Positions 12,580-44,163 are shown, numbered from the stretch's first letter. The stretch is 48,122 nucleotides of DNA from a bacterium (GCA_024231775.1 JAAEQG010001482.1:1-48122); one strand, 5' to 3'. Notes: generated from the letters alone by a model not told the origin. A program made the numbers and translations.

Positions 12580-14568
12580 TCAGCCTGCACGGTTGTCGGG
12601 TTCTTCCTCGTCCTCATCGAAGGTTCTCTGCACGCGGGCTTTGAGCCTGGGGCCTTCGGGGTGTTCGTGGGTGTACATGTCCTTGGGCATCGTTCCGCCG
12701 AGCCAGGACGGGTTCATCGGGTAGACGTGGGGGCTGAACAGCACCGAGTAACCATGCCATACCAGGATAGCCAGCGTAGCCAGCCAAGCCTCGTAGTAGT
12801 GAATCACTAACACCACGTCGAGGATACCCTTGGGCAACGCCCAACGCTGCACGAAATAGTTATCGAACCACAGGAGCACACCGGTAAGGGTCATGATGAC
12901 CCCGCCCCAGGCCAGGGCCCAGTACTCGCACTTCTCCATGTAGCTGAATCGTCCAAACTGGGGACGGTCATCCCGGAGTCCCAGGAAGTAGGCGGCGCTG
13001 TTCTTGATGTCCACGAAGTCGCGCTTGGCCAGAATCATGTCCCGCAGCGCATGCCGGCCACGATGGCCGAAGAGGTAGAAGAGGTGCCACACGCAACAGA
13101 ACGCGAACAGGACCGCCGCGATGCGATGCACTTCCCCACGGAACACGAACCCCTTGCCGTCTCCCCAGTCAAACAACCACTTCACCCAGAACGCCTCGGA
13201 GAAGCGCAGCGAGAATCCGGAAACCACCAGGATGATGAACGAGACCGTAAGCAACCAGTGCTGGAACGTCTCGTTGGGAGTCATCCGCACGACGTACGGT
13301 TTGCGACGCATGAGCTGGACATGGCGAACGATGTCGGCGATGTTGTGCAGGAGCATCAGTCCGATGGTGATTCCGATCAACCACAGATACAGGACTCTGA
13401 CGAAGTGTGGCCACCCCGTCTTGAGCCCTGTCGCGGACTCGTGGATCGAAGCCGAGGCAAGTTCGACGGATATCTGCTCGTGGCACTCCCCACAGGTCGC
13501 CTGGAGGTTGTCCGGATGAATCGAGGAGTCGGGGTCGGTGTGCGGAAGAATCCGGTGCGGGCCGTGACACGAGGAACAATTAGCCACTTTAACATCGTCG
13601 CTGGTGCTCGCCCGGCTCTTGAGTCCGTGGTAGCTGTCGATGTAGGACGTCAGCCGGCCCGCGGGGATGCCGTACTTCTCGTTGAGCACCTCAGACTCAT
13701 GGCATGGCGAACAGGTAGCTTCGGCCACCCGCGTGGCACTGACCGGTGACCGCGGGTCCTTATGGTCGATGATCCCATGCTCACCATGGCAGGTGGTGCA
13801 TACGGGCGCATCGACCTTACCGCGCTTGACCATCTTCCCGTGGATTCCTTCCCAGTAATCCTTCATGAACGTCGGATGACAGCTGCCGCACGTGTTGGGG
13901 ATGTTGAAGAAGGAGATCGGCGAATCAGAATCGCCAGCGCCCAGAATGCGATGCGCCGTCCGCTTCCCATCGGACTCGGGAGCGGAATGGCAGTCATTGC
14001 ACGTGGCCGCCATGTACCGTCCCTTACGGCTGGCTTGGCCGTGAATGGAATTCTCGTAGAGCCGGATAGGGGCATCGCGCAGGAACTCGTGCCTCTTGAC
14101 CAAGTCCACGTCGACATGACACGCCCTGCAGGTTTCCGGCAGGTTGATGGGGTGAACCCGCGAGTCCGTATCGTCGGTGGCGAGGATGTCGTGTGCCCCG
14201 TGACAACTCCAGCAGGCGGGGAGGTCGGGATCCTTCCCGACTTCGAGTCGGCCGTGCTGGGTATACACCTCGGCCGCTTCTTCGTGACACTCGCCGCAGT
14301 CCACCGGCGCGACCGCTTCCCCATGCGGGGTCGGAGATGTCGCATCAACGCTCTCCATGGAGAGCGACTGATGGCAGTCCGTGCAGTCCAGGTCCGCATG
14401 GATTGAAGTGCTGAGGATGTCCCCTGGCGGGCGGTCCTCCCCTGCGTCTGCCGCATCGTTGTGACAGTCGAGACAACTCGCGGGTTCCGTGGCTTGGGCG
14501 AAACCGCGCGGGCTTGCCCCTGCAATCACCAGCGCTGCAAGCGCCCCAATCATAATCGCCTGTCTCAT
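12580..14568 (-). CDS. CbcL-like fusion: 11-CxxCH multihaem cytochrome c + FdnI/HydC-type cytochrome b membrane domain
   Basis: I counted 11 CxxCH motifs, several as paired modules such as CSSCHGPHRILPHTDPDSSIHPDNLQATCGECH. The C-terminal TM domain has RMTPNETFQHWLL..VSGF, VHRIAAVLF..VWHLF and VIHYYEAW..LVWHGY (b-haem His ligands). Start is probably ATG 14568 (MRQAIMIGALAALVIAGA signal peptide); the track start is 14625. Confidence 0.85.
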   Translation of the reverse strand: MRQAIMIGALAALVIAGASPRGFAQATEPASCLDCHNDAADAGEDRPPGDILSTSIHADLDCTDCHQSLSMESVDATSPTPHGEAVAPVDCGECHEEAAEVYTQHGRLEVGKDPDLPACWSCHGAHDILATDDTDSRVHPINLPETCRACHVDVDLVKRHEFLRDAPIRLYENSIHGQASRKGRYMAATCNDCHSAPESDGKRTAHRILGAGDSDSPISFFNIPNTCGSCHPTFMKDYWEGIHGKMVKRGKVDAPVCTTCHGEHGIIDHKDPRSPVSATRVAEATCSPCHESEVLNEKYGIPAGRLTSYIDSYHGLKSRASTSDDVKVANCSSCHGPHRILPHTDPDSSIHPDNLQATCGECHEQISVELASASIHESATGLKTGWPHFVRVLYLWLIGITIGLMLLHNIADIVRHVQLMRRKPYVVRMTPNETFQHWLLTVSFIILVVSGFSLRFSEAFWVKWLFDWGDGKGFVFRGEVHRIAAVLFAFCCVWHLFYLFGHRGRHALRDMILAKRDFVDIKNSAAYFLGLRDDRPQFGRFSYMEKCEYWALAWGGVIMTLTGVLLWFDNYFVQRWALPKGILDVVLVIHYYEAWLATLAILVWHGYSVLFSPHVYPMNPSWLGGTMPKDMYTHEHPEGPRLKARVQRTFDEDEEEPDNRAG

Positions 14569-14664
14569 AGATAGCCTCTCGTACTGCTTGCCAAGGAATC
14601 CACCGGTCATGCTCCGGTTCGCCATTGAGCGTCGTATCCCTCGTCGCGTTCCCCGGCGGAACCA

Positions 14665-17538
14665 TCAGCGATACGCGAACAACATCGCGTAGACGATCAA
14701 CCCGACCAGAGTGAACCCGATCGCCAAGGCGGCAAACCCGAACACCTTGGCGCCCCGGGTCAGAGCCAGTGGAACCGGATCAGCCAGGAAGTCCTCAAGC
14801 CTGCCGCTGGCCACCAACTCCTCGTATTCCCGCGGCTTATCGTGCCGCAACTCTTCCAGCGTCATCCGGCCGGTGAAGATCACCGTATCCATGGGGAACT
14901 TCTCCGGACGGAAGTGGGTGTTGAAGAAGTGGATGGTGAATATGAAACCCGTGGCGAGCAGAGCTTCGTCACTGTGGATTATGGTCGCGACGTTGATCGC
15001 CCAACCCGGAAGCAGGCGCGTGAAGAACTCCGGAAACCACAGGCACAACCCGGTGGCACCGATCACCGCCACGCCCCAGAATACGGCGAAGTAGTCAAAC
15101 TTCTCCCAATAGGTCCACCGCCCGTAGTGGGGGCGCGGTCCGCGGCCGACGAACCACTTGACCGTCTGCCAGAACTCCCGGAGGTCATTCCACCGCGGCA
15201 GCATGGTGTTAGGTCCGAACACGTAGGCGGTCCAGGTCTTTCCGCTCTTGCGATACTTGCGCCACAGATCCCACAAGTGCAGCGCGAAGTATCCGAACGT
15301 AGCCAGCGCACAGATGCGGTGGATCCAGGCTGCGGTGTCCGCGCCGCCCAGGAAGCTGCTCAAGACCTTCGCCCAGCCCGTGTAGGAGAACTTGAGGGCC
15401 ATACCGGTGATCGCCAGCCCAAAGAAGCTCAGGATCACGGTGAGGTGCAGTCCACGACTAAAACGCGTAAAACGAACGAACTGTTTGGCCCGCGGGTCCA
15501 CCGCAGCCAACACTTGGCCGTGCTGCTTGCGCAGCTTCCAGGACCGCGGTAGCCACGCCAGTGTGTGCAGGCCGAAGAACGTGAAAGTGCCCACCAGCAA
15601 GGTGGTCATACCCCAGAATGTCCAGTAGAGCGCCGGGTACTTCTCGGGATCGTGGTGTGTGGCGTGAGTGAGATAGCCCGCGAAACGCCGATGGGATCCC
15701 GGATGACACTGGGCACAAGTAGCCACAATGCTGTCGCGGTGCAACATCGACCGCGAATCCGTGATCGGATGGATCTCATGGGCACCGTGGCAATCCTGAC
15801 ACCTGGCGGCGGTGCTGGATCCATCCAATTCAGAAGCCTTGCCGTGATAGGTATCGAAATACGTTCGGCTAACATCCTCGTGGCACTTCCCGCACTGCTC
15901 CATGATCTCGGTCTTGAAGTCAGAAACATCGGTGCGGGCTACGCGGTGTGACGTGTGACAGTCGTTGCAGCGCGGCAGTGCGTGAGGCTGCGATCCGCGC
16001 TGTCGCTCGTATTCCGGGTTACCGGTGGGGGAATGGATGCTGTGTTCGTACTGTTCATAGATGCCGTCGTGGCACTGCCCGCACGTCTCGGCGATGTTGT
16101 CCGGGTGGATGCTGGACTCGGTATCGTGCCGCGGCAGCTCCTTGTGGGGGGTGTGACAGTCCGTGCAGGTCGCGGTCACAGTCAGCCCGCTCTCCAGGAG
16201 CCCCTTCCCGTGGATGCTCATCGAGTAGTTCTCGATGATGTGGGTCTCCGTCCCGAAGTAGCGCAGCGCAGCCCGCCCACCCTCGCGGTGACACTTGCCG
16301 CACAGCTCGGGCACGTTGCGGCTGTAGCTCGGCGACTCGCGTACGAGATTCTTCAGTTCGCGCGGAGCGTCCTCCGCAACGGTGTGTTCAAGGATGTGGT
16401 GGCTACCGTGGCAGTCGGTGCAATAGGGGGCGTTTTCATCACCCGCCGCGTGTAGACGCCCGTGACGTCCTCGCTCGTACGCCGCGACCTCGGCTTCGTG
16501 GCACACCGAGCAGTTCACCCTCTCGGTGATGGAGCGACAAGGCCGGTCATCCGATGATGCGGTCACCCCCATGTGGCACTGCGCACAGGCGGTCACCTTG
16601 CGACCGTGGATGGATTCGCCGTACTCCTTGGAATCCACGTACAGAGAATGCCCGTCCTCCTCGGCGACCAGTTCGGGGCTCCCATGGCAACTGAGGCAGT
16701 CGGCGTTGCTCATCTCGGTGGAGTAAAACACCTCGCGGATCTCGTGCGGTGAGTGACACTCCACGCACACCGGCACGGTGCGTTCGGAGTCATCCGGACT
16801 TGCCCACAGCTCGCCGGCGATGATCTTGCGATGTACCTCCTGAATCCGGCCATGACACTGCCGGCAGGTGTCCGCCACCTTGTCCTCGTGGATCGAAGAG
16901 CGCGGATCGGTATGCGGCAGCACGTTGTGCCCGGTGTGGCAGCTCGTGCATACCGCGGTGACCACCAGCCCCTGCTTGAACAGCCCCTCTCCGTGGATGC
17001 TCTGGCGATAACGCTGGAAGACCTGTTCTTCCGGAAGGTCGTGAGTCCGCTCGACCTTGGCCCCCTCGGCGTGGCATTGCGCACACATCTGCGGGACGTT
17101 GAACGGAGAAATCACCGAGTCAGGGTCGGACAACTCAAGGATGTAGTGGTTGCCGTGGCAATCTTGGCATAATGGGGCATCTGGGTCGTCTGCCCGCACC
17201 CGCTGCCCGTGCGTGCTGGACCAGTACGCTGCGATCGGGCCGTCTTCGTCTTCGTGGCAGTCGCCGCAGCCCACGCGTTCCAAACCCGTCTGGTGCGGGT
17301 AGCCCTCGACGCCGTCGAGTTCGGTGTGGCAACCAACGCAATCCATGTCCCCGTGAACGCTACCCTCGAAGCGGTCCGGGTTCACGTGCAGGTCGATCTC
17401 GCGACCGGCGCGATCGACCTTCAGCCCCACCCGCGCGTGGCACTTGAGACAATCCTCATTCTCCTGGGCGATCCCCGCCGGAATGTGCCCGCTGAGCGCC
17501 AGCAAGAGGGAAACAGCCAGCAGGTTCGATCGGGGCAT
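14665..17538 (-). CDS. CbcL-like fusion: 19-CxxCH multihaem cytochrome c + FdnI/HydC-type cytochrome b membrane domain
   Basis: 957 aa with signal peptide MPRSNLLAVSLLLALSG. I counted 19 CxxCH motifs. The C-terminal roughly 330 aa are hydrophobic, with FTRFSRGLHLTVILSFFGLAITG, IHRICALATF..LHLW and IIHSDEALLATGFIFTIHFF. Confidence 0.85.
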   Translation of the reverse strand: MPRSNLLAVSLLLALSGHIPAGIAQENEDCLKCHARVGLKVDRAGREIDLHVNPDRFEGSVHGDMDCVGCHTELDGVEGYPHQTGLERVGCGDCHEDEDGPIAAYWSSTHGQRVRADDPDAPLCQDCHGNHYILELSDPDSVISPFNVPQMCAQCHAEGAKVERTHDLPEEQVFQRYRQSIHGEGLFKQGLVVTAVCTSCHTGHNVLPHTDPRSSIHEDKVADTCRQCHGRIQEVHRKIIAGELWASPDDSERTVPVCVECHSPHEIREVFYSTEMSNADCLSCHGSPELVAEEDGHSLYVDSKEYGESIHGRKVTACAQCHMGVTASSDDRPCRSITERVNCSVCHEAEVAAYERGRHGRLHAAGDENAPYCTDCHGSHHILEHTVAEDAPRELKNLVRESPSYSRNVPELCGKCHREGGRAALRYFGTETHIIENYSMSIHGKGLLESGLTVTATCTDCHTPHKELPRHDTESSIHPDNIAETCGQCHDGIYEQYEHSIHSPTGNPEYERQRGSQPHALPRCNDCHTSHRVARTDVSDFKTEIMEQCGKCHEDVSRTYFDTYHGKASELDGSSTAARCQDCHGAHEIHPITDSRSMLHRDSIVATCAQCHPGSHRRFAGYLTHATHHDPEKYPALYWTFWGMTTLLVGTFTFFGLHTLAWLPRSWKLRKQHGQVLAAVDPRAKQFVRFTRFSRGLHLTVILSFFGLAITGMALKFSYTGWAKVLSSFLGGADTAAWIHRICALATFGYFALHLWDLWRKYRKSGKTWTAYVFGPNTMLPRWNDLREFWQTVKWFVGRGPRPHYGRWTYWEKFDYFAVFWGVAVIGATGLCLWFPEFFTRLLPGWAINVATIIHSDEALLATGFIFTIHFFNTHFRPEKFPMDTVIFTGRMTLEELRHDKPREYEELVASGRLEDFLADPVPLALTRGAKVFGFAALAIGFTLVGLIVYAMLFAYR

Positions 17539-17663
17539 CGCAGCATCCTTGAGGTCTGCACGGTTCGTCTAGCCGGCTCCGGGTGGCCGCCGGCGCTCAC
17601 TTGCGCACGGGTTCCGCTGGACGAGGAGATCTACTGATAGTCCCGTTGTACCCGTGGCCGGGG

Positions 17664-17694
17664 AGTATTGTGGGCGCGGGGCGCCAGATGTCAA
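17664..17694 (-). promoter_or_regulatory. candidate sigma70-like internal promoter ahead of the 19-haem gene
   Basis: On the minus strand, TTGACA (17694-17689), a 19-nt spacer, then AATACT (17669-17664), about 125 nt upstream of ATG 17538. The spacer is long and the -10 is a 4/6 match, so this is weak. Confidence 0.2.
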
Positions 17695-17734
17695 CGCCTC
17701 CCGCACGCTGGGCGCGGCGTGGTCAGCCTGGTTT

Positions 17735-17744
17735 TGTTATAACA
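17735..17744. promoter_or_regulatory. perfect 10-bp A/T-rich palindrome TGTTATAACA (candidate transcription-factor site)
   Basis: Read directly. It sits in a local A/T-rich patch (gttttgttataacactatg) within the GC-rich 391-bp gap between the 13-haem and 19-haem genes, about 40 nt upstream of the TTGACA element. Confidence 0.25.
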
Positions 17745-17929
17745 CTATGCCGTTATGGGGAGAAACCGAAGCTGGGACGCCCCATCCGTGGGGAGCGTAG
17801 CGGGCCGGAGCCCACAGCACTTCGCGACGGAACCACCCTGCCCGTCCACACGACTCCGGTTCTGAAGCGAAGACGATGCCGTTGCCTGGACCCCAGACTC
17901 CGGCGTGCCATGGACTGTCGCAACGAACC

Positions 17930-19150
17930 CTAATCGCTCTTCGCGAGGGGGCCCGGACGCTTGTTGGGGAAGATGAAGCCCTCGTCCTCGTCGTGGCATT
18001 CGTCACAGCGCGGTTTCGCGTCAAACTTGCGGTCGGCGTGGCAATCGACGCAATCAACGTCCTCGTGGTTCTCGTCGAGCCCCTGCCCGGTCACCGCGTG
18101 TTCGAATGTGTCCGAGTCCCAGTCACGGTGACATGCATTGCACTCTCGGTCCAGCTTGCTGAAGCGGGCCGTTTTGTGGCAGGCGCGGCAACTGTTTTTC
18201 TCGTGGTACCTGCTGAGCGGCCAGCCGGTGTTGGCGTGGTCAAAGGGCGGCGGCTTGTTTTGCCCCTGCTTCCAGTGACAACGCGAGCAGTTTCCGCCCT
18301 TCGCCAGATCCACGCCGTGGCACTCAGCACAATCCTGGTGGTGTTCCTCGAAGGTCCGCTCGCGCTGAACATGTTTGCCGCCTTCTTCGTGGCAGCGGGC
18401 ACAGTTGTCGCCGCGGTGGCATTCGGCACACTTGAGCTCGAAGCGATGGATGTGCTCCTTGTGGCGGAAGATGACTTTCGTCCCGGGGGCGGGCTTCGAC
18501 TTGGGCTCGTAGATCTCGGTGTCCGGTTCGGGGATGGGGGCGCCCATGTGACCGAGAACCTCTCGAGGATCCAGGATCTTGACCCCGTTCCCTACTCTCT
18601 TCGCGTGGCACGCGTCGCACTTAGTGTTATGGCTCCATTCGCGGTGGCAGCCCATGCACTGACGGTGGTACGCCCCTTTGAGGCTTGGCCTCTTGATGTC
18701 CGCACCTGCCCGCCGGTTCTCCGGCGGATGACAGGTCCGGCAGGCGGGGTGGACCTCTCCCTCGGGCGTGTAATGATGGCAAACCGTGCATCCGCCGGAG
18801 ATTTCCGCCCACTTGGCGTGTCCGGAATGGTCGAAGGGCACGGGGCCGAAGCGATCGGTCCCCTCAGTTTCGCCCTTGAGCATGTCCAGCAGGATGATTC
18901 CCTCGGGGCCTTGCTTGCTGGCCAGGACCTCGGCGGCGGCCTGGACTCGCGTGCAGTCGGGCAGGCAGACCATCGCGGAGGTCGGTTTGGGGCAGGTGTG
19001 ACAGCGGGAGCAATCCGACGCCGGTTCAGGCTGGGCGGACGGCTGCTGAGCCAAGGCCCGGGAGGGAGCCAGGACGCCACCTCCAGCGATCACCAAAGCG
19101 GCGACGATGGTCAGCCTGCACAGATTCCCAGAGTGGAGGCGGTCGTTCAT
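17930..19150 (-). CDS. cytochrome c3-family multihaem cytochrome (13 CxxCH)
   Basis: 406 aa with signal peptide ..LTIVAALVIAGGGVLAPSRALAQ. I counted 13 CxxCH motifs. Its ATG overlaps the TGA of the upstream NrfD-like gene (ATGA at 19147-19150). Confidence 0.85.
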   Translation of the reverse strand: MNDRLHSGNLCRLTIVAALVIAGGGVLAPSRALAQQPSAQPEPASDCSRCHTCPKPTSAMVCLPDCTRVQAAAEVLASKQGPEGIILLDMLKGETEGTDRFGPVPFDHSGHAKWAEISGGCTVCHHYTPEGEVHPACRTCHPPENRRAGADIKRPSLKGAYHRQCMGCHREWSHNTKCDACHAKRVGNGVKILDPREVLGHMGAPIPEPDTEIYEPKSKPAPGTKVIFRHKEHIHRFELKCAECHRGDNCARCHEEGGKHVQRERTFEEHHQDCAECHGVDLAKGGNCSRCHWKQGQNKPPPFDHANTGWPLSRYHEKNSCRACHKTARFSKLDRECNACHRDWDSDTFEHAVTGQGLDENHEDVDCVDCHADRKFDAKPRCDECHDEDEGFIFPNKRPGPLAKSD

Positions 19151-20340
19151 GATTCCCTCGCAGTAAGGTCAGGGTGACTGATCACCGGGAGGTAGGTCAC
19201 CGCCAGGCGATACACGAGCATCAGGGTGGCGATCAGCCCGACGGTAATCGCGACTTCCATGAGCGATGGGAAGTAACTCTGCGTCACGTAGGGCGGCTGG
19301 TAGGAGATCAGGAACACATTGATGCGATTGAAGACCACCCCCAGCACGATCAACAGCGCCGCGGTCAGCAGGAGTCTCGGGGTGTTGCGAACCCGCTCGG
19401 ACAGCAGCATGAAGAAGGGGATCATCACTCCGAACAACATCTCGATGATGAAACACCAACTCTGCACCGAGTTCTCCGTCAGGTAGACATAGCTACCGCG
19501 GATGGCCATGTCCGTGAGCTTCACCGCCAGATAGACTCCGGTGAAGAAGATGGTGTACTTGGACAGCGGGGCGAGAATCTCCATCTCTGGCTTGAGCTTG
19601 AAGGACCAGCCGGCGAACATCGACTCGACGATCACCATGGGGAAACCCACCATGAACGCCGACAAGAGGAACAGCAAAGGGCTGATCGACGTGTCCCATA
19701 GATCATGCCACTTCGCAGGGCAGATGACCATCAGCGTCCCCAGGGAGGACTGGTGCAGGCAAGAGAGGGCTGTCCCGGCGATGACGAACACAAACATGAT
19801 CCTGCTCAGCCTGCTGTTGAGCGCTGCGGCAATGCGACTCAGGGTGGGCCAGCGCAGGTCGGTCTCGAACCGCTCACAGATAATAGGAAGAAACTCGATG
19901 TAGAGCACGTTGATGTAACACACCACGCACATGCCCACCTCGAAGAGCACCGAGTTGCCCTGCCAGAGGATGACCGGGTGCCAGATGTTGTAGAAGCGCC
20001 CCAGGTCGAAGGTCAACCCGATACCGACGAAGGTGTACCCCAGCATCGCGGTCAGCAGCGCCGGACGGGTGATGGCGTGGTAGTGCTCGCGGTGAAAGAT
20101 GTGGGCCAGGGTCGCGGTGGTGAACCCCCCCGCGGCCAACGCCACCCCGGTGGCAACGTCGATCGCGATCCAGATGCCCCAGGGGAACTCCTGATTGAGA
20201 TTGGTGGCACCCGCCAGCCCGCCGAGAGCGAACCGGTAGAACGCGGTGCACGCCATGATAATGGAGAGTATCAACAGCATCAGCACGCCGGGCGTGAAGA
20301 ACTTCCGGCCGACAGGCATGGGCAACGCATGTTCGCTCAC
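19147..20340 (-). CDS. NrfD/HybB/DsrP/HmcC-family integral membrane quinone-interacting subunit
   Basis: 397 aa, polytopic. The N-terminus FFTPGVLMLLIL..YRFALGGLAGATNLNQEFPWGIWIAIDV is characteristic of HybB/NrfD proteins. The GTG start is preceded by AGGAG. Confidence 0.85.
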   Translation of the reverse strand: MSEHALPMPVGRKFFTPGVLMLLILSIIMACTAFYRFALGGLAGATNLNQEFPWGIWIAIDVATGVALAAGGFTTATLAHIFHREHYHAITRPALLTAMLGYTFVGIGLTFDLGRFYNIWHPVILWQGNSVLFEVGMCVVCYINVLYIEFLPIICERFETDLRWPTLSRIAAALNSRLSRIMFVFVIAGTALSCLHQSSLGTLMVICPAKWHDLWDTSISPLLFLLSAFMVGFPMVIVESMFAGWSFKLKPEMEILAPLSKYTIFFTGVYLAVKLTDMAIRGSYVYLTENSVQSWCFIIEMLFGVMIPFFMLLSERVRNTPRLLLTAALLIVLGVVFNRINVFLISYQPPYVTQSYFPSLMEVAITVGLIATLMLVYRLAVTYLPVISHPDLTARES

Positions 20341-20444
20341 TCTGAAACTCCTAGCCGCCAGGGGCTTCCCGGCTGATGTGGTCCCCAGCTGTAATGCCGC
20401 GTGCCCGCCAAGCCATCGGCGCAGCTACCCGCGGCGGCGATTAG

Positions 20445-21428
20445 TCAACCACGGTGCTCCGCGGACGCGTGCCCCTCTTCCTTGGGGTTCGGGCGCGATA
20501 CCCACATCATCGCCCCCAACAGACCATACCAAGCCAGCGGCGGAATGAAGTGCTTGAACACGCCGTGCTGAATCGTCTCCGTACGCAGGGGCGGCACTGA
20601 CGAATCCAGCTCGACGAATCCCAGCTCCGCGAACGGCTTCTGCTTGGGGGCCAAGTACAACCACGAAGTTCCGCCGGCTTCATGCTCGCCGTAGACGTGG
20701 TCCAGGTATACGTCGGGCTCACTGCGGATCTTCTCGTGGGCGAGGTCCAGCAATTCGCTCCGCTTCCCGTAGGTCATGACCTCCGCCGGACAGATCTTCA
20801 TGCAAGCGGGCACTTTGCCCTTGTTGGGATTACCTTCGTCCGCACAGAGGGTGCACTTGCGCACCTGGGGGGTCAGCAGATTATCGTATTCGTAGGTGGG
20901 GATCCCGAAGGGACACGCCACCATGCAGTAACGGCAGCCCATGCATTTCCACGCATCGTAGACGACCGGACCGTCCTCCAGCTTCCTGAACGCCCCTACG
21001 ATGCACGCGGATTCGCACGCCGGTTTGTTGCAGTGAAAGCAGTTGGCTTTGTTGTAGAACGGCTTGGTCTCGTCCGCAGGATTGGGGAACCGCCCGATCT
21101 TGGTGTGGCAATAAGGCTCGGGCCGGCGCAAATCCTCCTGATCGTACACCGACTTGTCTTCAAAGGTCTCCATCGGCTGCGGTTTGAACAGAGCTGCCTC
21201 TTTGAGTTCGCCGCGGGCGATGGACGCCTGCTCGGCGGCCTCCCTGCAGGCGAACTCGCACCGCCGACACCCGATGCATTTGGGAATGTCCACCAGGACG
21301 CCCATCCAGTCTTCGGAGATGTGCAGCGCCTCGGAAGCATCCGCGGTCTGAGCGGCGGTTCCGGAAACGGCTCCACCAAGCCCCAGTATGCCCGCGGTCC
21401 GCAGAAAGTCTCTTCGTGTACCTGACAT
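20445..21428 (-). CDS. Tat-exported 4x[4Fe-4S] ferredoxin-type subunit (HybA/DsrO/HmcB/NrfC-like) with C-terminal TM anchor
   Basis: Twin-arginine signal MSGTRRDFLRTAGILGLGG. Cys clusters are CIGCRRCEFAC, CFHCNKPACESAC, CMGCRYCMVACP and CTLC..C..ICP. The C-terminal helix is FIPPLAWYGLLGAMMWV. Confidence 0.85.
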   Translation of the reverse strand: MSGTRRDFLRTAGILGLGGAVSGTAAQTADASEALHISEDWMGVLVDIPKCIGCRRCEFACREAAEQASIARGELKEAALFKPQPMETFEDKSVYDQEDLRRPEPYCHTKIGRFPNPADETKPFYNKANCFHCNKPACESACIVGAFRKLEDGPVVYDAWKCMGCRYCMVACPFGIPTYEYDNLLTPQVRKCTLCADEGNPNKGKVPACMKICPAEVMTYGKRSELLDLAHEKIRSEPDVYLDHVYGEHEAGGTSWLYLAPKQKPFAELGFVELDSSVPPLRTETIQHGVFKHFIPPLAWYGLLGAMMWVSRPNPKEEGHASAEHRG

Positions 21429-24719: not shown

Positions 24720-26063
24720 TCAGTCGGCCAGAGGTAGCCCGCTGGGAACTCCGTCTGGGGTATCGGCGATCGCCAGCCAGCCGAGACTGGGTGAAGTCAG
24801 GGCCTCCATGAACTGCATCAGGTCGTCGAACTCGCCGGCGGTGAGCGTTACCGGCTCGGTCTCGTCGGGATCGACCGCCGCCAGGATGGTGTCGGTCTGC
24901 TCGGGATGGTAGAGGGGTTCGAGCGCTGCGCTGAGTTGTTCGGCGTCGAAAGCTGCGACGCTACTCACGCAATCGAGCTGGTGCCTCACCGCGGCTTCGA
25001 GCGTGGTAAACGCACCATCGTGCATCCAGGGGCCGGTGGCAGCGACGTTGCGCAGAGGTGGCGTACGGAACTTGCAGCGGTCCGCCTGGTCCTCCGTGAC
25101 GCGTTCGCGGCCGAAGTCGGCCAGACCCGCATCACCGTCTCCCTTGCCGGGGCCGAGTTGAGGAACGGCCCGATTGTGGTAGTCCTCGTCGGTCATTAGC
25201 GAGCCAGTGTGGCAGTTCGCGCATCCGGCTTTGCCGTAAAATAGCACGGCGCCGCGCTTGGCTGAGTCTGACAGAGCGGTGCCGTCGCCACGGAGGTAGG
25301 CGTCGAAGGGACTGTCCACCAGCGTCCAGTGCTCGATTTCAAAGGCTGCGATCGCATTGGCGGCGTGGGCAAAGGTGAGATCATGCTCGGCGACGTCGGG
25401 GTAGGCTGCGGCGAAGAGTTGCCGATACTCGTCGAACTCGAGCACGCGGACCATCAGCGCCGACCAGATCCCGCTGAAGTCGTCATCGTCCGCATCAGCA
25501 ATCTCGTTCTCGCCCGCGGCACCGCGCATTTCGTCTGGAGACGTCACCGGGAACATAGCCTGGACAGCCAAAGCGCTTTCCAGACCGGGAAGGAGCGCGT
25601 CTCCCGCGGGCGACTCGAAAGTCCCGTCGCCGCGGTCGGCCACTCGACCATCCCAGAACATAGTCGTAAAGCCGGCCCGGTTGAACACTTCCGGAGCGTT
25701 TCGGGGGATGAAGATCGGCTCGCCACCCTGATCCACCGGAGCGGCACGCCCCTGAGCCAATCCCGTGCCGCCCTGGCCAACGGAGAGTGATAAGCCGTCG
25801 CCAGTGAATGCCAAAGGAGTGTGGCAGGTGGCACAGGAGATGTTCCGGTTGCCGCTCAGGAGCTTGTCGAAGAAGAGCGCCTGCCCCAGGCGGACCTTGG
25901 CTTCCTCGGCGGCTGGCTTGGAGATCGCCTCCACCTCATGCTCGGCCAACAAGGCCCGCAGGTCGGTGTCCAGTTCTTCCGCACCGTCGGGGGGAGCCAC
26001 GACGGCTGTACACCCCCCGACGAGAAGCATCGCCGCACAGATTGCGAGTTTCTTCCGGTTCAT
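24720..26063 (-). CDS. dihaem cytochrome c peroxidase (CCP/MauG family), probable lipoprotein
   Basis: Two CxxCH motifs (CATCH, CANCH). FFDKLLSGNRNISCATCH and FRTPPLRNVAATGPWMHDG are family hallmarks. Start set at ATG 26063 (MNRKKLAICAAMLLVGGC lipobox), preceded by AAGGAG. Confidence 0.85.
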   Translation of the reverse strand: MNRKKLAICAAMLLVGGCTAVVAPPDGAEELDTDLRALLAEHEVEAISKPAAEEAKVRLGQALFFDKLLSGNRNISCATCHTPLAFTGDGLSLSVGQGGTGLAQGRAAPVDQGGEPIFIPRNAPEVFNRAGFTTMFWDGRVADRGDGTFESPAGDALLPGLESALAVQAMFPVTSPDEMRGAAGENEIADADDDDFSGIWSALMVRVLEFDEYRQLFAAAYPDVAEHDLTFAHAANAIAAFEIEHWTLVDSPFDAYLRGDGTALSDSAKRGAVLFYGKAGCANCHTGSLMTDEDYHNRAVPQLGPGKGDGDAGLADFGRERVTEDQADRCKFRTPPLRNVAATGPWMHDGAFTTLEAAVRHQLDCVSSVAAFDAEQLSAALEPLYHPEQTDTILAAVDPDETEPVTLTAGEFDDLMQFMEALTSPSLGWLAIADTPDGVPSGLPLAD

Positions 26064-26435
26064 GTTCTTTCTCCTTGCTGCGCCTGCGAACGCACGCCAC
26101 ACAGACCAGCGGATTCGGTCACACAACCGCGTCATACGTGTCCAGAGGAGGTGCATTCCCCGATGCGCTCATGCCATTGGCATGGGCGACCCGTCATCAG
26201 GCTCATTCTAGCGTCTCTGGACAGCGATATCGACGGCCTGACCTGATGCAGAGGGGGCATATTGCCACCCCTGCATCGTGCTGAGTTGCCGGCCGTTCGG
26301 AGAGGACGCTCACCCAGCACGCAGTAACACGGCGTATCAGGACGCGCCCGCACGGTCTCGACCCAACGGCTTGGGCGGCGTAGAATGAGCGGTGCGCGGT
26401 GGTGGAACCCAAACGCGTCGGATGGTGCGTCGAAT

Positions 26436-37606: not shown

Positions 37607-40600
37607 TTATCGTCCGAACCACCGCCGCTTCTTGGTGGGACACTCTGAGGGCTCCTCATGGGTCTCACTGCAGGCCTGCTCGATCAGTTCGACAAGCGGG
37701 CGGCCCGCACCGCTCAGGCGACGGAGCATTTTGACCTTCGCCAGAGTCTCAGAATCCAATGAATCGAGGAGGGCCTCATCAGGGTCAGGTCCGGGCGGCG
37801 TCTCCGGCATCTGGTCATCTGGCCGATCAGGGGCCTCCTGCTGACTGTCCTTCCCAAGATCCGATGGTTCCGCCAGCTTGGTGGCTTGCGGAGCTGCCTG
37901 CTTCTTGCTGGGCATCCGTGCGTTGCCCTGCCCGGGAGCCCGCGGAGGTAGCATGACCACTTTCTTCACCTCGCCGGCGCTCGCCAGCGAATCCTCACCG
38001 GAGGCATCATTCGAGACCGGCGGATCACTCTCCGGACCGGACGACTCGGCATCGACGCGCGCATCCTCCGCGCCACCGGCCGTTTCCCTGCCGAAACTCT
38101 CTATGGCTTCATTAGCGTGGTGGAGTTCCACCTCGCGCTCGGTCAGCTTCTGGTTGAGCGCCTCCAACTCACTGCGCAGCTCTTCTGCGCGCGCGGAACT
38201 CTCCTCGGCGTCGGTGGCGCGCTCGCGCTCCTGACCCTCGACATCACCGATGCGCCGATCAAGGTCTTGCTCGAGGTCTTGCACGCTCCGCTGCTGCTCG
38301 GCGATCTGACCCTCTCGGGCCTGCAGCTCTGCTTCGGCTTGATCGAGCTTCTGCTCACGGATGCCCAGCGTTTTCTCTGCTTCCGCGGCTACTCGGTTCG
38401 CCGTATCGACCTGCTCTAAGCCCGCAGCGAGCTCGCGCTCACGTTCAGCCAAAGCTGACGCCTCGGACTCGAGCTCGGCACGTGAAGCCGAAGCCTCAGT
38501 GCCGTCCGCTTCTGCCTGACTCTTGGCGGTGAGGATCTCCTCCCGCTGGCGACGAAGCGCCTCCTGCTCCTCTGCAAGACGTCCCTGCAGATCGTTCAAC
38601 GCCGTCTGTTGTTCGGCCAGTTCAAGCTTCGTCTGTTCAAACTCGCACCGCTGGTCCTTGAGTTGGCGCTGCTGCTCGGCCATCTGCCGGCCACCGCTGT
38701 CGAGGGCAGCGGCGCGCTTCTCCAGCTCGCGCTCACGTTCAGCCAAGGCGGACGCCTTGGACTCGAGCTCGGCACGTGAAGCCGAGGCCTCAGCACCGTC
38801 CGCGTCTGCCTGACCCTTGGCGGTGAGGATCTCCTCCCGCTGGCGGCGGAGAGCATTCCGCTCCTCCTCAAGACGTCCATGCAGGTCTTTCAGCCCCGCC
38901 TGCTGTTTGGCGAGTTCAAGCTTCGACTGTTCAAGTTCACCAGCATGTGCGTCAAGTTCGCACCTCTGGTCTTTGAGTTGGCGCTGCTGCTCGGCTGACG
39001 CACGTTTCTCAGCCTCAAGATCCGCTTCCTGAGCTGCGTTCACCTCCCGAAGCTCATCCAATTCTCGGGTGCGCGTGTCCAGCACCTGCAGATCCTGTTC
39101 TTGCCGTCGATCGAATTGGTCCTGAAGTTTGGCGAGCTCAGCAGCTCTCTTCTGGAGGTCTTGCTCGGCCTGTTCCACCTGACGCCGAGCAACGTCCACC
39201 TCGCCAGACTCTTGTTCACCTGCCGCCGCACGAGCCTCAAGCACGGCTTCACGCTGGTGAAGCTCGTCGGCCTCCTTCCGCAGCGCGGACCGATCCGATT
39301 CACAAGCCTGGCGGTCCTGTTCGAGCTGCTCATACTGCTTCTTGAACCCCGCCCCCTGCTCGTGGCGTTCCAGCTCCCAGGTCTGACGAACAGCTTCGAG
39401 TTGACTGGCTTGGGATTCCAGTTGCTCACGCTCGTCGCGGAGAGCGGCTTCGCGCTGCTCCAGCCCAACCGCCACCTGGTTCGCCTCCTCGACGGCGATC
39501 TCCTGCTGGGCAACCCTCTTTCGGTGCTGTTCCTCCAGCCCCCTGCGCTCCCGTTGGGCTTCGACAAGGAGTGCCTCCCCAGCGCCGAGCTTCTCCTCCC
39601 GGGTGATCAGCTCAGCCTGCAGGTCTTCCACCTCCTGTTCGCCGCGTGCCAGATCCTGCTGGGCCTGTTCGCATTGCCTGAGTTGGGCGGCGAGGGTGCT
39701 CCGCATGTGGTTCTGCTCTGCCTCGCGCTCCTGCAGGTCAGCCCGGGACTGCTCCAAAGCAGCCTGCCCTGCCTCCAAAGCCAGGGCGCGATCTTGCAGA
39801 CTCTGAACTTCTTCGACGGCCGCCGAGCGCTGTTGATCCAGCTCCGCAAGCCCGGTGTCGAGCCTAGCTGCCCGCTCCTGGAACTCTGCCTCCTGAGCAC
39901 CAAACCGGGCAGCGAAGGAGGACTGTTCGGACTCCAGCTTGCGTCGGGCCTCTTCCAGGCGAGCGCAGTCCTCCGCAACTTGCCCCTGGCGATCCTCCAG
40001 CTCAACTTGTCTCGCGGAGTGACTCTCCGCATCCGCCGCTTGGCGCTGCTCGGCCTCCGCTACGGCGGTTTCTCGCGTCGCAAGATCTCGCTCCGACGCC
40101 GCCAGCCGCTCATTCAGCTCCGCAAGCTCTGCCTGCTGCCCGGTGAGACCGCTCTGCAAATCGACCGTACGCTTTTCGAGTTCCTGACGAAGCGCGTTCA
40201 ACTCCGCAAGGTCCGCCTCGTGAGTCTGACGCTGGGTATCGAGAGCCCGCTCCCGCTGCTCGAGCTCTTGGGCGAATTCGCGGGCGCGCCGGTCAGCCTG
40301 AGCCACCTCAGCTTCGCGCTGCTCGATATCGCTACGGGCGGCGGTCGCCCGGGCAAGCTGCTGATCGAGCGCCTCTTGCTTTTCCCGCTGCTCTTGGGCA
40401 GCTCGCTCCGCATCAGCACGCTGTTCTTCAAGCCTGGCCCTCAGTTGCTCGCCTTCGGCGCTACGAGAAGCCAATTGCTGCTTGAGCTCGTCCAGGGCCT
40501 GGGCTCGGGCCTCCAGCTCCGCGGTCTGATTTGCGATCCGGCATTCGCGTTCGTCCCCATGCTCGGAACAGCGCGACAGCGCCTCGCGGTCTTTCTGGAG

Positions 40601-41539
40601 AACCTCGTTCTCTGCCGCGAGCTTCCTGGCATCCTCTTCGAGTGAAACGTGGCGAGCTTCCAGCAGGTGCTCACGCTCCGTAGCCGCGTTCTCCCGGGCC
40701 TGGACTTCCCGCCGCGCTTCTTCAACACTGCGGCGATGTTGGTCCAGGTCCTCAAGCTGCCCGTCCAGGCGTTCCTCAATCAGGGTCAGGTCATCGCCCC
40801 GTCGGGCCAAGTCTTTGCCCTGGCTCTCGATGTCGGCGAGGCGACCTTGTAGCTGCGCCTCCCGAGAGTGCAGATCCTCGGTCTGACTGCAGAGCTCTGA
40901 CTCGCGCGCCTCCAGCTCAGCCCTTTGCTTCTCCACGCGAGCCTGAGTGTCCACCAATTCCGCCGCACTTTTCTCGCATTGCTCATCGCTCGACTTGCAC
41001 TCAGCCCGGGCAGCCTCCAAATCAGCGCGCTCGCGCTGCAGCTGCGCCCGCTCATCCTCCAGATCCTGCCGGCTCCGGGCCTGGTCCTCAAGTTGGCTCT
41101 TACGGCCGGCGTCAAGCGCCTCTAGTTCTTGATCCAACTGCTGGCGCTGCTGAACCAGGGCGGCTTCACTGGCTGCGCAGGCCTGATCGCGGGATTCAAG
41201 CTCCGCTTGTTTCAACCGGAGCTCATCCCGGGCGGCCTGAAGATCGCGCTGTCCGGCGGCCAACTCCGTGGTCTGTTGGTCGGTATCGATGGTGAGCCGG
41301 TCGAGATCGGCCTGCCGCGCGTCTAGCCGCGAACTCGTCTCCCCCAGGAGACCTTCCCATTGACTCGCCCCCTCGAAGGAATGGGTGAGCACTTCGCAGA
41401 CGGTCTGAATCTTGGCCTCGGCGTCTGCAAGCGCATCGGTGAGTTCGCGGTCACCCTGATCGTTCGGAGCGGCCGTATTGGTCTGGCACTCCGCCGCTGC
41501 ATTCGCGGCGGAGCGATCATCACGAGATCGCGGCGCCAT
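37607..41539 (-). CDS. giant coiled-coil protein (about 1310 aa, E/Q/R/A/L-rich) with Pro/acidic linker and short basic C-terminal helix
   Basis: A single uninterrupted ORF. Composition and heptad-like periodicity indicate a continuous coiled coil for about 1150 aa, followed by a disordered SGPESDPP..PETPPGPDPDE segment and LAKVKMLRRLSGAGRPLVELIEQ. ATG 41539 is preceded by GGGGGGA; the track GTG start is 41584. Confidence 0.8.
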   Translation of the reverse strand: MAPRSRDDRSAANAAAECQTNTAAPNDQGDRELTDALADAEAKIQTVCEVLTHSFEGASQWEGLLGETSSRLDARQADLDRLTIDTDQQTTELAAGQRDLQAARDELRLKQAELESRDQACAASEAALVQQRQQLDQELEALDAGRKSQLEDQARSRQDLEDERAQLQRERADLEAARAECKSSDEQCEKSAAELVDTQARVEKQRAELEARESELCSQTEDLHSREAQLQGRLADIESQGKDLARRGDDLTLIEERLDGQLEDLDQHRRSVEEARREVQARENAATEREHLLEARHVSLEEDARKLAAENEVLQKDREALSRCSEHGDERECRIANQTAELEARAQALDELKQQLASRSAEGEQLRARLEEQRADAERAAQEQREKQEALDQQLARATAARSDIEQREAEVAQADRRAREFAQELEQRERALDTQRQTHEADLAELNALRQELEKRTVDLQSGLTGQQAELAELNERLAASERDLATRETAVAEAEQRQAADAESHSARQVELEDRQGQVAEDCARLEEARRKLESEQSSFAARFGAQEAEFQERAARLDTGLAELDQQRSAAVEEVQSLQDRALALEAGQAALEQSRADLQEREAEQNHMRSTLAAQLRQCEQAQQDLARGEQEVEDLQAELITREEKLGAGEALLVEAQRERRGLEEQHRKRVAQQEIAVEEANQVAVGLEQREAALRDEREQLESQASQLEAVRQTWELERHEQGAGFKKQYEQLEQDRQACESDRSALRKEADELHQREAVLEARAAAGEQESGEVDVARRQVEQAEQDLQKRAAELAKLQDQFDRRQEQDLQVLDTRTRELDELREVNAAQEADLEAEKRASAEQQRQLKDQRCELDAHAGELEQSKLELAKQQAGLKDLHGRLEEERNALRRQREEILTAKGQADADGAEASASRAELESKASALAERERELEKRAAALDSGGRQMAEQQRQLKDQRCEFEQTKLELAEQQTALNDLQGRLAEEQEALRRQREEILTAKSQAEADGTEASASRAELESEASALAERERELAAGLEQVDTANRVAAEAEKTLGIREQKLDQAEAELQAREGQIAEQQRSVQDLEQDLDRRIGDVEGQERERATDAEESSARAEELRSELEALNQKLTEREVELHHANEAIESFGRETAGGAEDARVDAESSGPESDPPVSNDASGEDSLASAGEVKKVVMLPPRAPGQGNARMPSKKQAAPQATKLAEPSDLGKDSQQEAPDRPDDQMPETPPGPDPDEALLDSLDSETLAKVKMLRRLSGAGRPLVELIEQACSETHEEPSECPTKKRRWFGR
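38420..39000 (-). repeat. in-frame tandem duplication, 2 copies with a 294-bp (98-aa) period, inside the giant coiled-coil gene
   Basis: GCTCGCGCTCACGTTCAGCC recurs at 38431 and 38725. The protein copies both run QQRQLKDQRCE..LRRQREEILTAK.QA.ADG.EASASRAELES.ASALAERERELE. The upstream copy carries an 18-nt indel. Identity is high by eye but was not computed. Confidence 0.85.
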
Positions 41540-41878
41540 CGCTGTCCCCCCTGATCCAAGTGTTCCCCCCCTGCGCGTCCGCACTCGGCAGCGCGTACCG
41601 CGAGGTCACCTGAGAGTCTACAATTCAATCCTCAGCGAGGCAGACCGCCACCGCAGGAGCCTACCGGTCGATGAGTATCGGACGTTTGTGCCTGTGCGCA
41701 TCCGCACGGAGTGGGTTATCGAACCGAGCCCGCAGGTGATTGAAAGTCGCTGGGGATTATCACCGAAGTCTATCGTAGACTCGGACCGACAGCGCCTTCG
41801 CGCTTCGGGGGCGGTGGGTCCAAATACGGGGAGATCGGCTCGGGCATCACTCCTGCGAGCGAGTGCGGTCCAGGAAAC

Positions 41879-43072
41879 ATGCGTATGGCCGCATCCACTG
41901 AGACCGGATCACTGCCTGCCCAACCGCCTGATACGGCGGGACTGCAACGTGCGGGCGGTGACGCGCTGGCATCGATCCGGCGCGTCCAGGATCTGCTCCG
42001 CGCCCGTGGCACGGAGTTGGAAGCCCTGCGCGCCGAGCTATCAGATGAGCGAACCACTTTGAGTTCCGATCATGCCCGGCTTGAAACCGAGCGCGCCGCC
42101 TGGCACCAAGAGCAGAATAACGCCCGCAACGTCTTGGGAGAACGTGAAGAGACCGTCGCCACCGAACACCAGCGCCTTGCCGACCGGGAGTGCGAGCTAG
42201 AGGCTCAACATCTCGAGGTGAGCGCAGCGCAAGAAGCGACCGAGCAGTCCAGAACAGAGCTCGCCGAGCGCCAGCGCCAGCTGGCCGACCTGCAACGATC
42301 CGTCGAAGCGAGCGCGGCGACTTGTGTGGAGCAGGAGACCGCCCTGAGCACCCGAGGCGAGGAGCTGGAAGCAACCGCCGCGAAGCTTGCTGCCGATGAG
42401 CAGCGGATGGCTGACCTCCGCAGTGCGGTGCAGCACGATCGTGGTGAGCTTCAGCGCACCGAGAGCGAACTGGAGACTGAGCAAGTCCGACTCACGGAGC
42501 TGGCCGCCACGCTGGAAGACCACCAGACAGACACGGTGCGGGAACGACAACAGGTTGAGTCCGCTCGCCAGGATCTGGAGAGCATGCAGACAGCGTTAAG
42601 CCAATCTCGCGAATCCATCGAGCGCCAAGAGGCGGACCTCGCAAACGCAGATGAGGCTCTGCGGAAGCGTACAAGCGAACTGGAGGAGCTCGAGGATTCC
42701 GTCGGGGAGCAAACCCGTACGCTGCAACAGCGTGAAGCCGCCGTCCAGGGCGCGACGCAGGAAGCAGAAGCCAAACTGAAGGAGGCTGACTCCATCCGCG
42801 AGGGCATGGCAACGCTTCAGGCCCAGTTGGAGCGCGAGCGCCATGAAGTCGCCCAGCAGCGTCAGGAGCTCATGAGGCAACTGGGAGCCCTCCCGGAGTC
42901 GATCGCCGAGGAAGATTCAACCGCGCCGGCGGACGAGCCGGCGATGTCGGTCGAGGACCCAAAAGCGCCGGAAGCGCCCGCCGAGCCCGCCCCTCCAGCG
43001 GTGACGTCGGCGGCGGAGCGGATGCGCAAACTACGTCGCGATGCCAAGCGCCGAGCGATGGGCGGAATGTAG
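41879..43072 (+). CDS. coiled-coil protein (397 aa) with Pro/acidic linker and basic C-terminal helix
   Basis: ATG is preceded by AGGAAA. It has the same E/Q/R/A/L-rich heptad-like composition as the divergent giant gene. It ends ..PKAPEAPAEPAPPAVTSAAERMRKLRRDAKRRAMGGM. Confidence 0.75.
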   Translation: MRMAASTETGSLPAQPPDTAGLQRAGGDALASIRRVQDLLRARGTELEALRAELSDERTTLSSDHARLETERAAWHQEQNNARNVLGEREETVATEHQRLADRECELEAQHLEVSAAQEATEQSRTELAERQRQLADLQRSVEASAATCVEQETALSTRGEELEATAAKLAADEQRMADLRSAVQHDRGELQRTESELETEQVRLTELAATLEDHQTDTVRERQQVESARQDLESMQTALSQSRESIERQEADLANADEALRKRTSELEELEDSVGEQTRTLQQREAAVQGATQEAEAKLKEADSIREGMATLQAQLERERHEVAQQRQELMRQLGALPESIAEEDSTAPADEPAMSVEDPKAPEAPAEPAPPAVTSAAERMRKLRRDAKRRAMGGM

Positions 43073-43147
43073 GCGCGGTCGGGATTTGCGCATCGGTCCC
43101 CGAACCAGTGCACCAAGACCGGGCTCGTCGGAGAACTAGGTAGACAG

Positions 43148-44155: not shown

Positions 44156-44163
44156 CGTAACGT

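Follow-up and report, generated by a model that had tools for sequence, protein, structure and literature searches.

A five-gene locus, probably from the Phycisphaerae, combining an FeS–NrfD–cytochrome module with two paired CbcL-type bc-cytochromes

Introduction

The CbcL protein of Geobacter sulfurreducens, in which a nine-haem c-type domain is fused to a di-haem HydC/FdnI-like b-type domain, is a menaquinol oxidase for low-potential extracellular acceptors (bioRxiv 10.1101/2022.08.31.506072; PMC9129911). Homologues of CbcL, MtrH and MtoC have been described in 15 phyla including the Planctomycetes; they are 416–1034 amino acids (aa) long and carry 3–23 CxxCH haem c motifs, they mostly have six helices, with five-helix members included, and their genes frequently form clusters with other cytochrome genes or with mtrAB/mtoAB (Zhong & Shi 2018, PMC6295460). 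Complexes of iron–sulphur (FeS), NrfD and multihaem subunits that lack a molybdopterin subunit have been proposed to be quinol:acceptor reductases in Melioribacter roseus and in MBNT15 (PMC9386147). Another relevant design is the electron-transfer module (ETM) of anammox bacteria (kuste2854–2856), in which an FdnI-like cytochrome b (kuste2856) and multihaem proteins including the heptahaem kuste2855 are encoded within the hydrazine synthase (hzs) cluster and feed this enzyme from the quinol pool. Here we analyse a five-gene locus at positions 12580–21428 (minus strand) of the DNA stretch GCA_024231775.1 JAAEQG010001482.1:1-48122, which is 48,122 nt long, is referred to below as the window, and probably comes from a genome of the Phycisphaerae (Planctomycetota). 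The locus brings together an FeS–NrfD–cytochrome module and two bc-cytochromes of the CbcL type.

Members of the Phycisphaerae are usually regarded as polysaccharide-degrading heterotrophs. In our view the locus probably encodes parallel quinol:periplasmic-cytochrome oxidoreductases for electron transfer of the extracellular type, its two sub-modules linking the (mena)quinone pool to periplasmic haem chains. A conserved three-module kit of this kind supports the metagenomic hints of an electron exchange between many Phycisphaerae and minerals, humics or partner cells.

Results

Five co-directional open reading frames (ORFs), g1–g5, are present on the minus strand between positions 12580 and 21428. 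An earlier reading of the sequence (the original prediction) had listed here a protein exported by the twin-arginine translocation (Tat) system and carrying four [4Fe-4S] clusters, an NrfD/HybB-like membrane subunit coupled through an ATGA overlap to a 13-haem cytochrome, and 19- and 11-haem cytochromes each fused to a b-type membrane domain, and our analysis recovered all of these elements at the same coordinates. A regular-expression count on the translations of g3, g4 and g5 gave 13 + 19 + 11 = 43 CxxCH motifs, as first counted, and found none of the variants CxxxCH, CxxxxCH and CxxCK in the cluster proteins. Shuffling of the residues within each protein yielded a mean of 0.05–0.17 CxxCH (maximum 3). 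Among the 34 ORFs of the window only two CxxCH motifs lie outside the cluster, both of them in one gene similar to MauG and to cytochrome c peroxidase (CCP).

The products of g4 (14665–17538, minus strand; 957 aa) and g5 (12580–14625, minus strand; 681 aa) are built on one plan, in which a signal peptide is followed by a periplasmic c domain at the N-terminus (19 haems in g4, 11 in g5) and then by a C-terminal di-haem b domain of the FdnI type, with six helices in g4 and five in g5 as judged from hydropathy. The b domains match the Pfam family Ni_hydr_CYTB (prokaryotic cytochrome b561, PF01292) at 37.1 bits (g4) and 55.9 bits (g5) against a cut-off of 30.1, and their matches to TIGR01583 are weak. 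When g5 is aligned by phmmer to FdnI (1kqf_C), its residues His456, His500, His609 and His624 correspond to the FdnI haem b ligands His18, His57, His155 and His169 (in the raw alignment His500 is displaced by one helical turn); the counterparts in g4 are His698, His740, His855 and His870. If the c domain is placed in the periplasm, helix 1 leads into the cytoplasm, and the four helices after it follow the FdnI topology. The AlphaFold2 model of g4, based on 64 homologues, has a mean predicted local distance difference test value (pLDDT) of 78, with most of the membrane domain at 85–95. The top and the only significant match of this model in the PDB, as searched by Foldseek, is again FdnI 1kqf_C (E = 4e-4, TM-score of 0.75 normalised to FdnI). 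Sequence searches of the PDB returned no close solved relative of g4 or g5.

The two proteins are paralogues (28% identity over 672 residues, E = 6e-61), and since g5 aligns to g4 in several registers, the 19-haem domain is a version of the 11-haem one with an internal duplication. Among 64–70 homologues of g4, all 19 of the 19 CxxCH motifs are conserved (for both proteins this means invariant or present in at least 95% of the sequences), while at least 19 further periplasmic histidines and six membrane histidines (His658, His698, His740, His754, His855 and His870) are invariant. The 22 g5-type proteins compared keep the 11 motifs, about 10–11 further histidines and the four b-haem ligands. 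Outside the motifs, the invariant histidines of g4 are thus at least as many as its haems and suffice for bis-histidine ligation of each of them, while about 10–11 are available for the 11 haems of g5, which indicates that these are electron-transfer haems rather than catalytic ones; the pattern argues against an open catalytic site, one or two haems of g3 (see below) being a possible exception. His658 and His754 of g4 are invariant extras beyond the four FdnI-equivalent ligands, and a third haem or a quinone site are the possibilities for their role.

In two independent clusters the paralogues are joined into one polypeptide (P0007, 1636 aa; P0102, 1566 aa), in which the g5-like part precedes the g4-like part. 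In both fusions the signal peptide of the g4 part is kept as a linking transmembrane helix, and this is the extra membrane pass that the five-helix topology of g5 demands. Because g4-like and g5-like proteins have been fused in two lineages, g4 and g5 probably work as a pair, and the arrangement suggests that they probably act as a heterodimer.

The exported c domain, the FdnI-like b domain and the approximately six helices with histidine ligands all fit the assignment of g4 and g5 to the CbcL/MtrH/MtoC family, to which they would thus belong. Table S2 of PMC6295460 lists as the CbcL homologue OGU58019.1 an Ignavibacteria protein that is also in our set of loci (L070); it is 952 aa long, shares 49% identity with g4 and has its 19 motifs at corresponding positions. 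The same table contains 11-haem, g5-like Planctomycetes proteins of 664 and 709 aa. It is on this published homologue table that the membership of g4 is based; a search with a fragment of G. sulfurreducens CbcL recovered from a supplementary alignment, a query that was only approximate owing to poor optical character recognition, gave zero matches.

The remaining three genes encode an FeS–NrfD–cytochrome set. The g1 product (20445–21428, minus strand; 327 aa) is a periplasmic ferredoxin-like subunit resembling HmcB and HybA, with the twin-arginine signal SGTRRDFLR and 17 cysteines that form four ferredoxin-type [4Fe-4S] motifs; it matches the Pfam family Fer4_11 at 56.6 bits against a cut-off of 26.2, and its C-terminal segment (residues 290–308) is weakly hydrophobic (hydropathy peak 1.04). 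The g2 gene (19147–20340, minus strand; 397 aa, GTG start) encodes an integral membrane, quinone-interacting subunit of the NrfD family similar to HybB and HmcC (PF03916, 73.3 bits against a cut-off of 25.8), with ten hydropathy peaks and approximately ten predicted transmembrane helices. The g3 product (17930–19150, minus strand; 406 aa) is a 13-haem cytochrome c exported by the general secretion (Sec) route. In comparison with the NCBIfam profiles, g1 scored 284 bits for HmcB (cut-off 420) and 212.7 bits for HybA (cut-off 263), g2 scored 325.3 bits for HybB (cut-off 450) and 263 bits for HmcC (cut-off 550), and g3 scored 66.7 for HmcA (cut-off 400) and 39.9 for the nine-haem NhcA (cut-off 640). 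All three remain below the equivalog cut-offs and should therefore be considered relatives of the Hmc and Hyb proteins and not members of these families. Within g3, residues 120–185 show a match to the c3-like domain at the C-terminus of HmcA and of the nine-haem cytochrome, and g3, g4 and g5 all match cytochrome c3/c7 Pfam families above the curated cut-offs.

A search with g3 found 842 relatives at E ≤ 1e-5, mostly in the Planctomycetota. Across 62 homologues the 13 motifs are invariant, as are 11 further histidines and three extra cysteines, C53, C62 and C66, which are located within residues 47–66 right behind the first haem motif; with 11–12 conserved non-motif histidines in all, there are fewer than the 13 haems. 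The cysteine triad and the histidine shortfall may reflect a His/Cys-ligated haem or a disulfide; the AlphaFold2 model of g3 (pLDDT 60) is too poor for a fold search or for locating these cysteines. The trio combines a Tat-exported multi-cluster ferredoxin, an NrfD subunit and a co-encoded multihaem cytochrome with neither a molybdopterin nor a NiFe subunit, and it is kept in the loci L002, L010, L034, L064, L081 and L084–L087. To judge from this composition, g1–g3 would form an FeS–NrfD–cytochrome complex similar to Hmc, Nhc and HybAB, in which the 13-haem g3 replaces the catalytic subunit.

The spacing of the genes is uneven. The stop codon of g2 overlaps the start codon of g3 in an ATGA, indicative of translational coupling, and the intergenic distances are 104 bp between g1 and g2, 39 bp between g4 and g5, and 391 bp between g3 and g4 (17539–17929). 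The last gap contains one promoter-like match on the minus strand (17694–17667, TTGACA-16-CACAAT, 10/12), which is the sole sigma-70-like match in 9.7 kb, where 2.2 are expected by chance, and is not significant alone; the terminator and promoter scans as a whole were at or below the chance level. There is no credible ORF in the gap, where a small HmcD-like ORF was looked for, and its sequence, in which a regulatory element was sought, is not conserved with the two closest related loci (L081 and L082); an Rfam scan of the whole window gave zero matches. The 391-bp gap is probably a boundary between two transcription units, and therefore the five genes need not be one transcript.

The family of g4 is large, a relative being encoded in at least 595 species-representative genomes. 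Its nearest named relatives are found in the Phycisphaerae/Planctomycetota (62–69% identity), and relatives at 47–55% identity occur in the Zixibacteria, Acidobacteriota, Ignavibacteria/Melioribacter, Calditrichota, Gemmatimonadota, Eisenbacteria, KSB1 and more. The search for the same five-gene order elsewhere, which the original prediction had proposed, was productive. The content and order of the cluster are preserved in the closest relatives, L081 and L082, where the g4 homologue is 77% identical and the flanks are quite different; L086 (GCA_016208685.1) also retains the order with other flanks. In L087 the order is the same and the FeS and NrfD subunits are fused into one gene, while in L034 a gene for an ImcH-like cytochrome is inserted. 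The five genes are present in rearranged orders in L002, L010 and L064 (a Melioribacter metagenome-assembled genome, MAG), and g3 and g4 homologues share one contig in at least 11 further cases. On the other hand, g4–g5 are found without g1–g3 in L083 and many other loci, and g1–g3 are accompanied in L084 and L085 by a NapC/NirT-type multihaem protein and a g5-like gene. Since each set is also found apart from the other, the locus consists of two separable sub-modules that have repeatedly been brought together. The large inner-membrane conduit of the original prediction thus holds good as an electron-transfer kit, although it would be not one conduit but two separable sub-modules, with three quinone-interacting units in parallel.

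The occurrence of each unit alone, together with the 391-bp gap and its promoter-like site, could be taken to mean that two unrelated respiratory units have become neighbours by chance and that their adjacency is meaningless. However, the combination recurs in Phycisphaerae, in the Melioribacter MAG and in three MAGs unclassified below Bacteria, with differing flanks and gene orders, and we regard a chance adjacency as barely credible.

Three of the related loci contain, between the NrfD and the 13-haem genes, a 38-aa hydrophobic gene similar to HmcD (DVU_0533): L087:8284-8400, L088:3251-3364 and L002:7647-7763. Such a gene is absent from the window, as searched with a profile made from these three relatives, and from L081, L086, L034, L010 and L064. 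The densest arrangement observed is that of L034:4796-15099, where six tightly packed genes for FeS, NrfD, 13-haem, ImcH-like, g4-like and g5-like proteins encode four different quinone-interacting cytochrome modules.

The neighbours of g4 homologues were counted in 80 species genomes. A second CbcL-type gene is the companion in 29 of the 80, and an ImcH-like NapC/NirT cytochrome, with motif positions matching those of published ImcH homologues, occurs at 24/80 loci. Rieske and cytochrome b genes were found in 10/80. A set similar to the Geobacter porin–cytochrome systems, made up of a putative barrel without any family match and of two cytochromes with 14 and 7 haems, is present in 6/80 (L007, L014, L041, L064, L072 and L080), and a GSU2204-family protein with a decahaem cytochrome of the DmsE/GSU2203 family in 3/80. 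In L064:2679-20875 the genes g1-g2-g3, a histidine kinase gene, g4 and g5 are followed by a c554-like tetrahaem gene, the putative barrel, the 14-haem and 7-haem cytochromes and a sigma-54 response regulator; the barrel and the two cytochromes of this locus resemble a porin–cytochrome conduit.

In agreement with the original prediction, the scanned ORFs of the 48-kb window include no molybdopterin, hydrogenase, reductase or porin–cytochrome genes; cytochrome-maturation genes are not among them either. No beta-barrel porin with adjacent multihaem cytochromes was found in the window, which contains no match to barrel-type families and no multihaem ORF besides g3–g5. The flanking genes are unrelated: they encode a GDSL lipase, a metallophosphatase, UDP-glucose dehydrogenase, a sugar aminotransferase, TilS, citrate synthases and others. 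Across the 88 loci a catalytic enzyme is adjacent in only two, L086 (hzs-like) and L087 (molybdopterin oxidoreductase), so that the homologues are not always accompanied by a known catalytic enzyme; had they been, the locus would count as an ordinary accessory module. These two loci nevertheless deserve attention. In L086:2508-20195 the five genes sit between the ResB and CcsA cytochrome c biogenesis genes and an hzsA-like gene (PF18582), and a further gene for a 797-aa protein with c554 and beta-propeller parts resembles a fused hzsBC. The genome GCA_016208685.1 is one of three reference genomes affiliated with the Phycisphaerae UBA1845 that were reported to have hzsABC-like genes, and related MAGs of that study were proposed to be possible novel anammox bacteria (PMC10732223). 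The L087 locus has a cluster of molybdopterin oxidoreductase genes immediately upstream.

Considered with the anammox ETM, where an FdnI-like cytochrome b and multihaem proteins are part of the hzs cluster itself, these neighbours raise the question of whether our five genes are an ETM-like accessory module for a soluble periplasmic enzyme encoded elsewhere, such as a molybdoenzyme or a partner similar to hydroxylamine oxidoreductase. We consider this unlikely. The hzs-like and the molybdoenzyme neighbours occur in one of the 88 loci each, neither of them is present in the window, and the L087 molybdoenzyme is accompanied by FeS and small cytochrome genes of its own. Moreover, the flanks of the window, of L081 and of L083 are unrelated housekeeping or regulatory genes.

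Some other genes of the window may be mentioned. The gene that contains the two stray CxxCH motifs (24720–26156, minus strand) encodes a di-haem protein of the MauG/cytochrome c peroxidase family (PF03150; TIGR03981 at 276 bits, under the cut-off of 340). It shares its strand with g1 and lies 3.3 kb upstream of it, with sugar-nucleotide genes in between. The segment 26385–29941 (plus strand) carries a gene of the PEP-mutase/isocitrate-lyase family followed by two citrate-synthase paralogues and resembles a methylcitrate cycle. Finally, the region 37607–46454 encodes coiled-coil proteins of 1325 aa and 397 aa with weak, sub-cut-off NCBIfam matches of the SMC type, followed by an FGE-sulfatase-like gene, a Double-GTPase (DO-GTPase1/2) gene and a GAP1-N2 gene; this may be a GTPase-centred conflict or signalling system.

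Discussion

The composition of the locus can be translated into a scheme of electron flow. In the first sub-module the NrfD-like g2 would exchange electrons with quinol or quinone, and the four-cluster g1 would relay them to the periplasmic 13-haem g3, which would occupy the place of hydrogenase-2 or of a molybdoenzyme in the related complexes. In the second, the di-haem b domains of g4 and g5, with quinone sites that by analogy with FdnI should be near the cytoplasmic face, would each be continued by a periplasmic bis-histidine wire of 19 and 11 haems. All three units would then be alternative quinol dehydrogenases, that is, parallel exits from the quinone pool, and the acceptors would be periplasmic or outer ones, for example Fe(III) or Mn(IV) minerals, humics or partner cytochromes. 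A parallel may be seen in the ImcH/CbcL/CbcBA set of G. sulfurreducens, the members of which serve different redox-potential windows. What the analysis shows are the gene structures, the cofactor-binding motifs with their invariance, the FdnI fold, the topology, the recurrent co-localisation and the fusion; we infer that complexes are formed, that quinol is oxidised under physiological conditions, that the acceptor is extracellular and that the use of the units is potential-specific.

The direction is the point at which this scheme is most exposed. FdnI, HybAB, Hmc/Nhc and MtoC, which besides CbcL are the best-studied relatives of our proteins, bring periplasmic electrons into the quinone pool, and the opposite direction is therefore equally compatible with the sequences. 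The same hardware in reverse would take up electrons from Fe(II), reduced humics or a partner cell, or from H2 or formate via soluble cytochromes, and pass them into the quinone pool. As these relatives all run that way, electron uptake is the main rival of the scheme proposed above, and we would give it a real, if clearly smaller, chance. The fold and the ligands of FdnI natively serve quinone reduction at the cytoplasmic face, and the nearest relatives of g1 and g2 are HybA/HybB and HmcB/HmcC, which feed quinone or the cytoplasm. The CbcL/MtoC homologues are present both in Fe(II) oxidisers and in Fe(III) reducers, no sequence feature separating the two directions (PMC6295460). The genomic context speaks rather for quinol oxidation: ImcH-like cytochromes, reported only from Fe(III)-reducing organisms (PMC6295460), are the commonest non-paralogous neighbours of g4 homologues, and the window contains no Cyc2 or MtoA-type gene. 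In addition, a lake metagenome survey that obtained CbcL hits in Phycisphaerae MAGs placed them with reductive, not oxidative, electron-transfer genes.

Beyond the behaviour of the relatives, several of our observations weigh against parallel quinol exits to an extracellular acceptor. The 391-bp gap and the promoter-like site point to more than one operon, and no outer-membrane conduit or terminal reductase is encoded within the 48-kb window. The scores of g1, g2 and g3 under the NCBIfam Hmc/Hyb equivalog cut-offs, and the hzs-like and molybdoenzyme neighbours in L086 and L087, should also be counted on this side.

A different division of labour between the sub-modules can be conceived as well. 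The quinone site is periplasmic in proteins of the NrfD/PsrC type and cytoplasmic in FdnI, as seen in the Fdn-N structure. Given this difference in sidedness, the FdnI-type units could reduce quinone at the cytoplasmic face with low-potential periplasmic electrons, and quinol would be oxidised again by the NrfD-type unit at the periplasmic face for higher-potential acceptors in the periplasm or outside the cell, so that energy would be conserved between two cytochrome pools in a redox loop. The repeated co-localisation of the genes in several phyla and in different orders does suggest functional coupling, but the loop is a purely inferential construction; g4–g5 very often occur without g1–g3, and g1–g3 occur with other partners. 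We regard such a loop as very improbable. A more elaborate picture would join three propositions: an obligate g4–g5 heterodimer (30 haems, four b haems) with a 19-haem arm spanning much or all of the periplasm and dispensing with a soluble carrier; a quinone-mediated redox loop with g1–g3 that conserves energy between two extracytoplasmic pools; and a g3 cysteine triad that provides a His/Cys-ligated haem, either of very low potential or substrate-reactive. That all of these should hold together seems to us quite improbable.

Under the preferred scheme of parallel quinol exits, the interest of the locus stems from its Phycisphaerae host, the conserved pairing of the modules, the evidence from fusions, the g3 cysteine triad and the histidines 658 and 754 of g4. 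For the study of CbcL-type proteins in general it provides testable material, namely the g5–g4 fusion, the haem and histidine maps that are invariant across phyla, and the recurrent pairing with an Hmc/Nhc-like module.

All the components of the locus belong to known families that have been built into a conserved kit, and it is not a new kind of system. The original prediction was correct in recognising a mixture of the Hmc/Dsr/Hyb FeS–NrfD logic with the Cbc logic of Geobacter, which agrees with both the homology and the comparative context. The novelty that it implied was overstated, however, as the literature already contains FeS–NrfD and CbcL-type proteins, among the latter the 19- and 11-haem forms of Planctomycetes and Ignavibacteria. 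We found no published description of the specific five-gene combination.

For g1–g3 the closest comparison is with the Hmc/Nhc/Ohc-type complexes of sulfate reducers and with HybA–HybB of E. coli hydrogenase-2, which likewise include a Tat-exported four-cluster FeS protein and an NrfD protein, a multihaem cytochrome of the c3 type being co-encoded. The gene order, however, is A-B-C in Hmc and B-C-A here, and the cytochrome has 16 haems in Hmc or 9 in Nhc versus 13 in g3. Genes for HmcE and HmcF do not flank our cluster, HmcD is likewise lacking in the window, and no NiFe hydrogenase subunits accompany the HybA/HybB-like g1 and g2 there. The genes DFE_0461–0465 of Desulfovibrio ferrophilus were also considered as an FeS/NrfD relative and were dropped, since according to the literature they encode cytochromes and NHL-repeat proteins.

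The complexes of M. roseus and MBNT15 and the Cbc4 (CbcSTU) type of Geobacter have the same FeS subunit and NrfD anchor of the complex iron–sulphur molybdoenzyme (CISM) type, where a multihaem cytochrome replaces the molybdopterin subunit, and are proposed to pass quinol electrons to periplasmic cytochromes in Fe(III) reduction (PMC9386147). Their descriptions do not include a pairing with two CbcL-type genes, and the likeness to g1–g3 considered here is one of design. The anammox ETM is similar to g4 and g5 in that an FdnI-like cytochrome b and a multihaem c part draw quinol electrons for a periplasm-equivalent compartment. Yet the ETM has its b and c parts on separate proteins, with 7 and 3 haems, and serves a defined enzyme, whereas g4 and g5 are fused bc-cytochromes; the window has no hzs-like genes, and neither have 87 of the 88 loci, L086 being the exception.

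The likeness of g4 and g5 to the CbcL family extends to the entire architecture, a single polypeptide with an N-terminal bis-histidine multihaem c part and a C-terminal di-haem b part and with no FeS, flavin or molybdenum subunit. The differences are in number and arrangement: CbcL has 9 haems and is encoded by a single gene, whereas g4 and g5 are adjacent paralogues with 19 and 11 haems that are fused in some lineages; and g5 has five helices instead of six, while the g4 family is distinguished by its two extra invariant membrane histidines.

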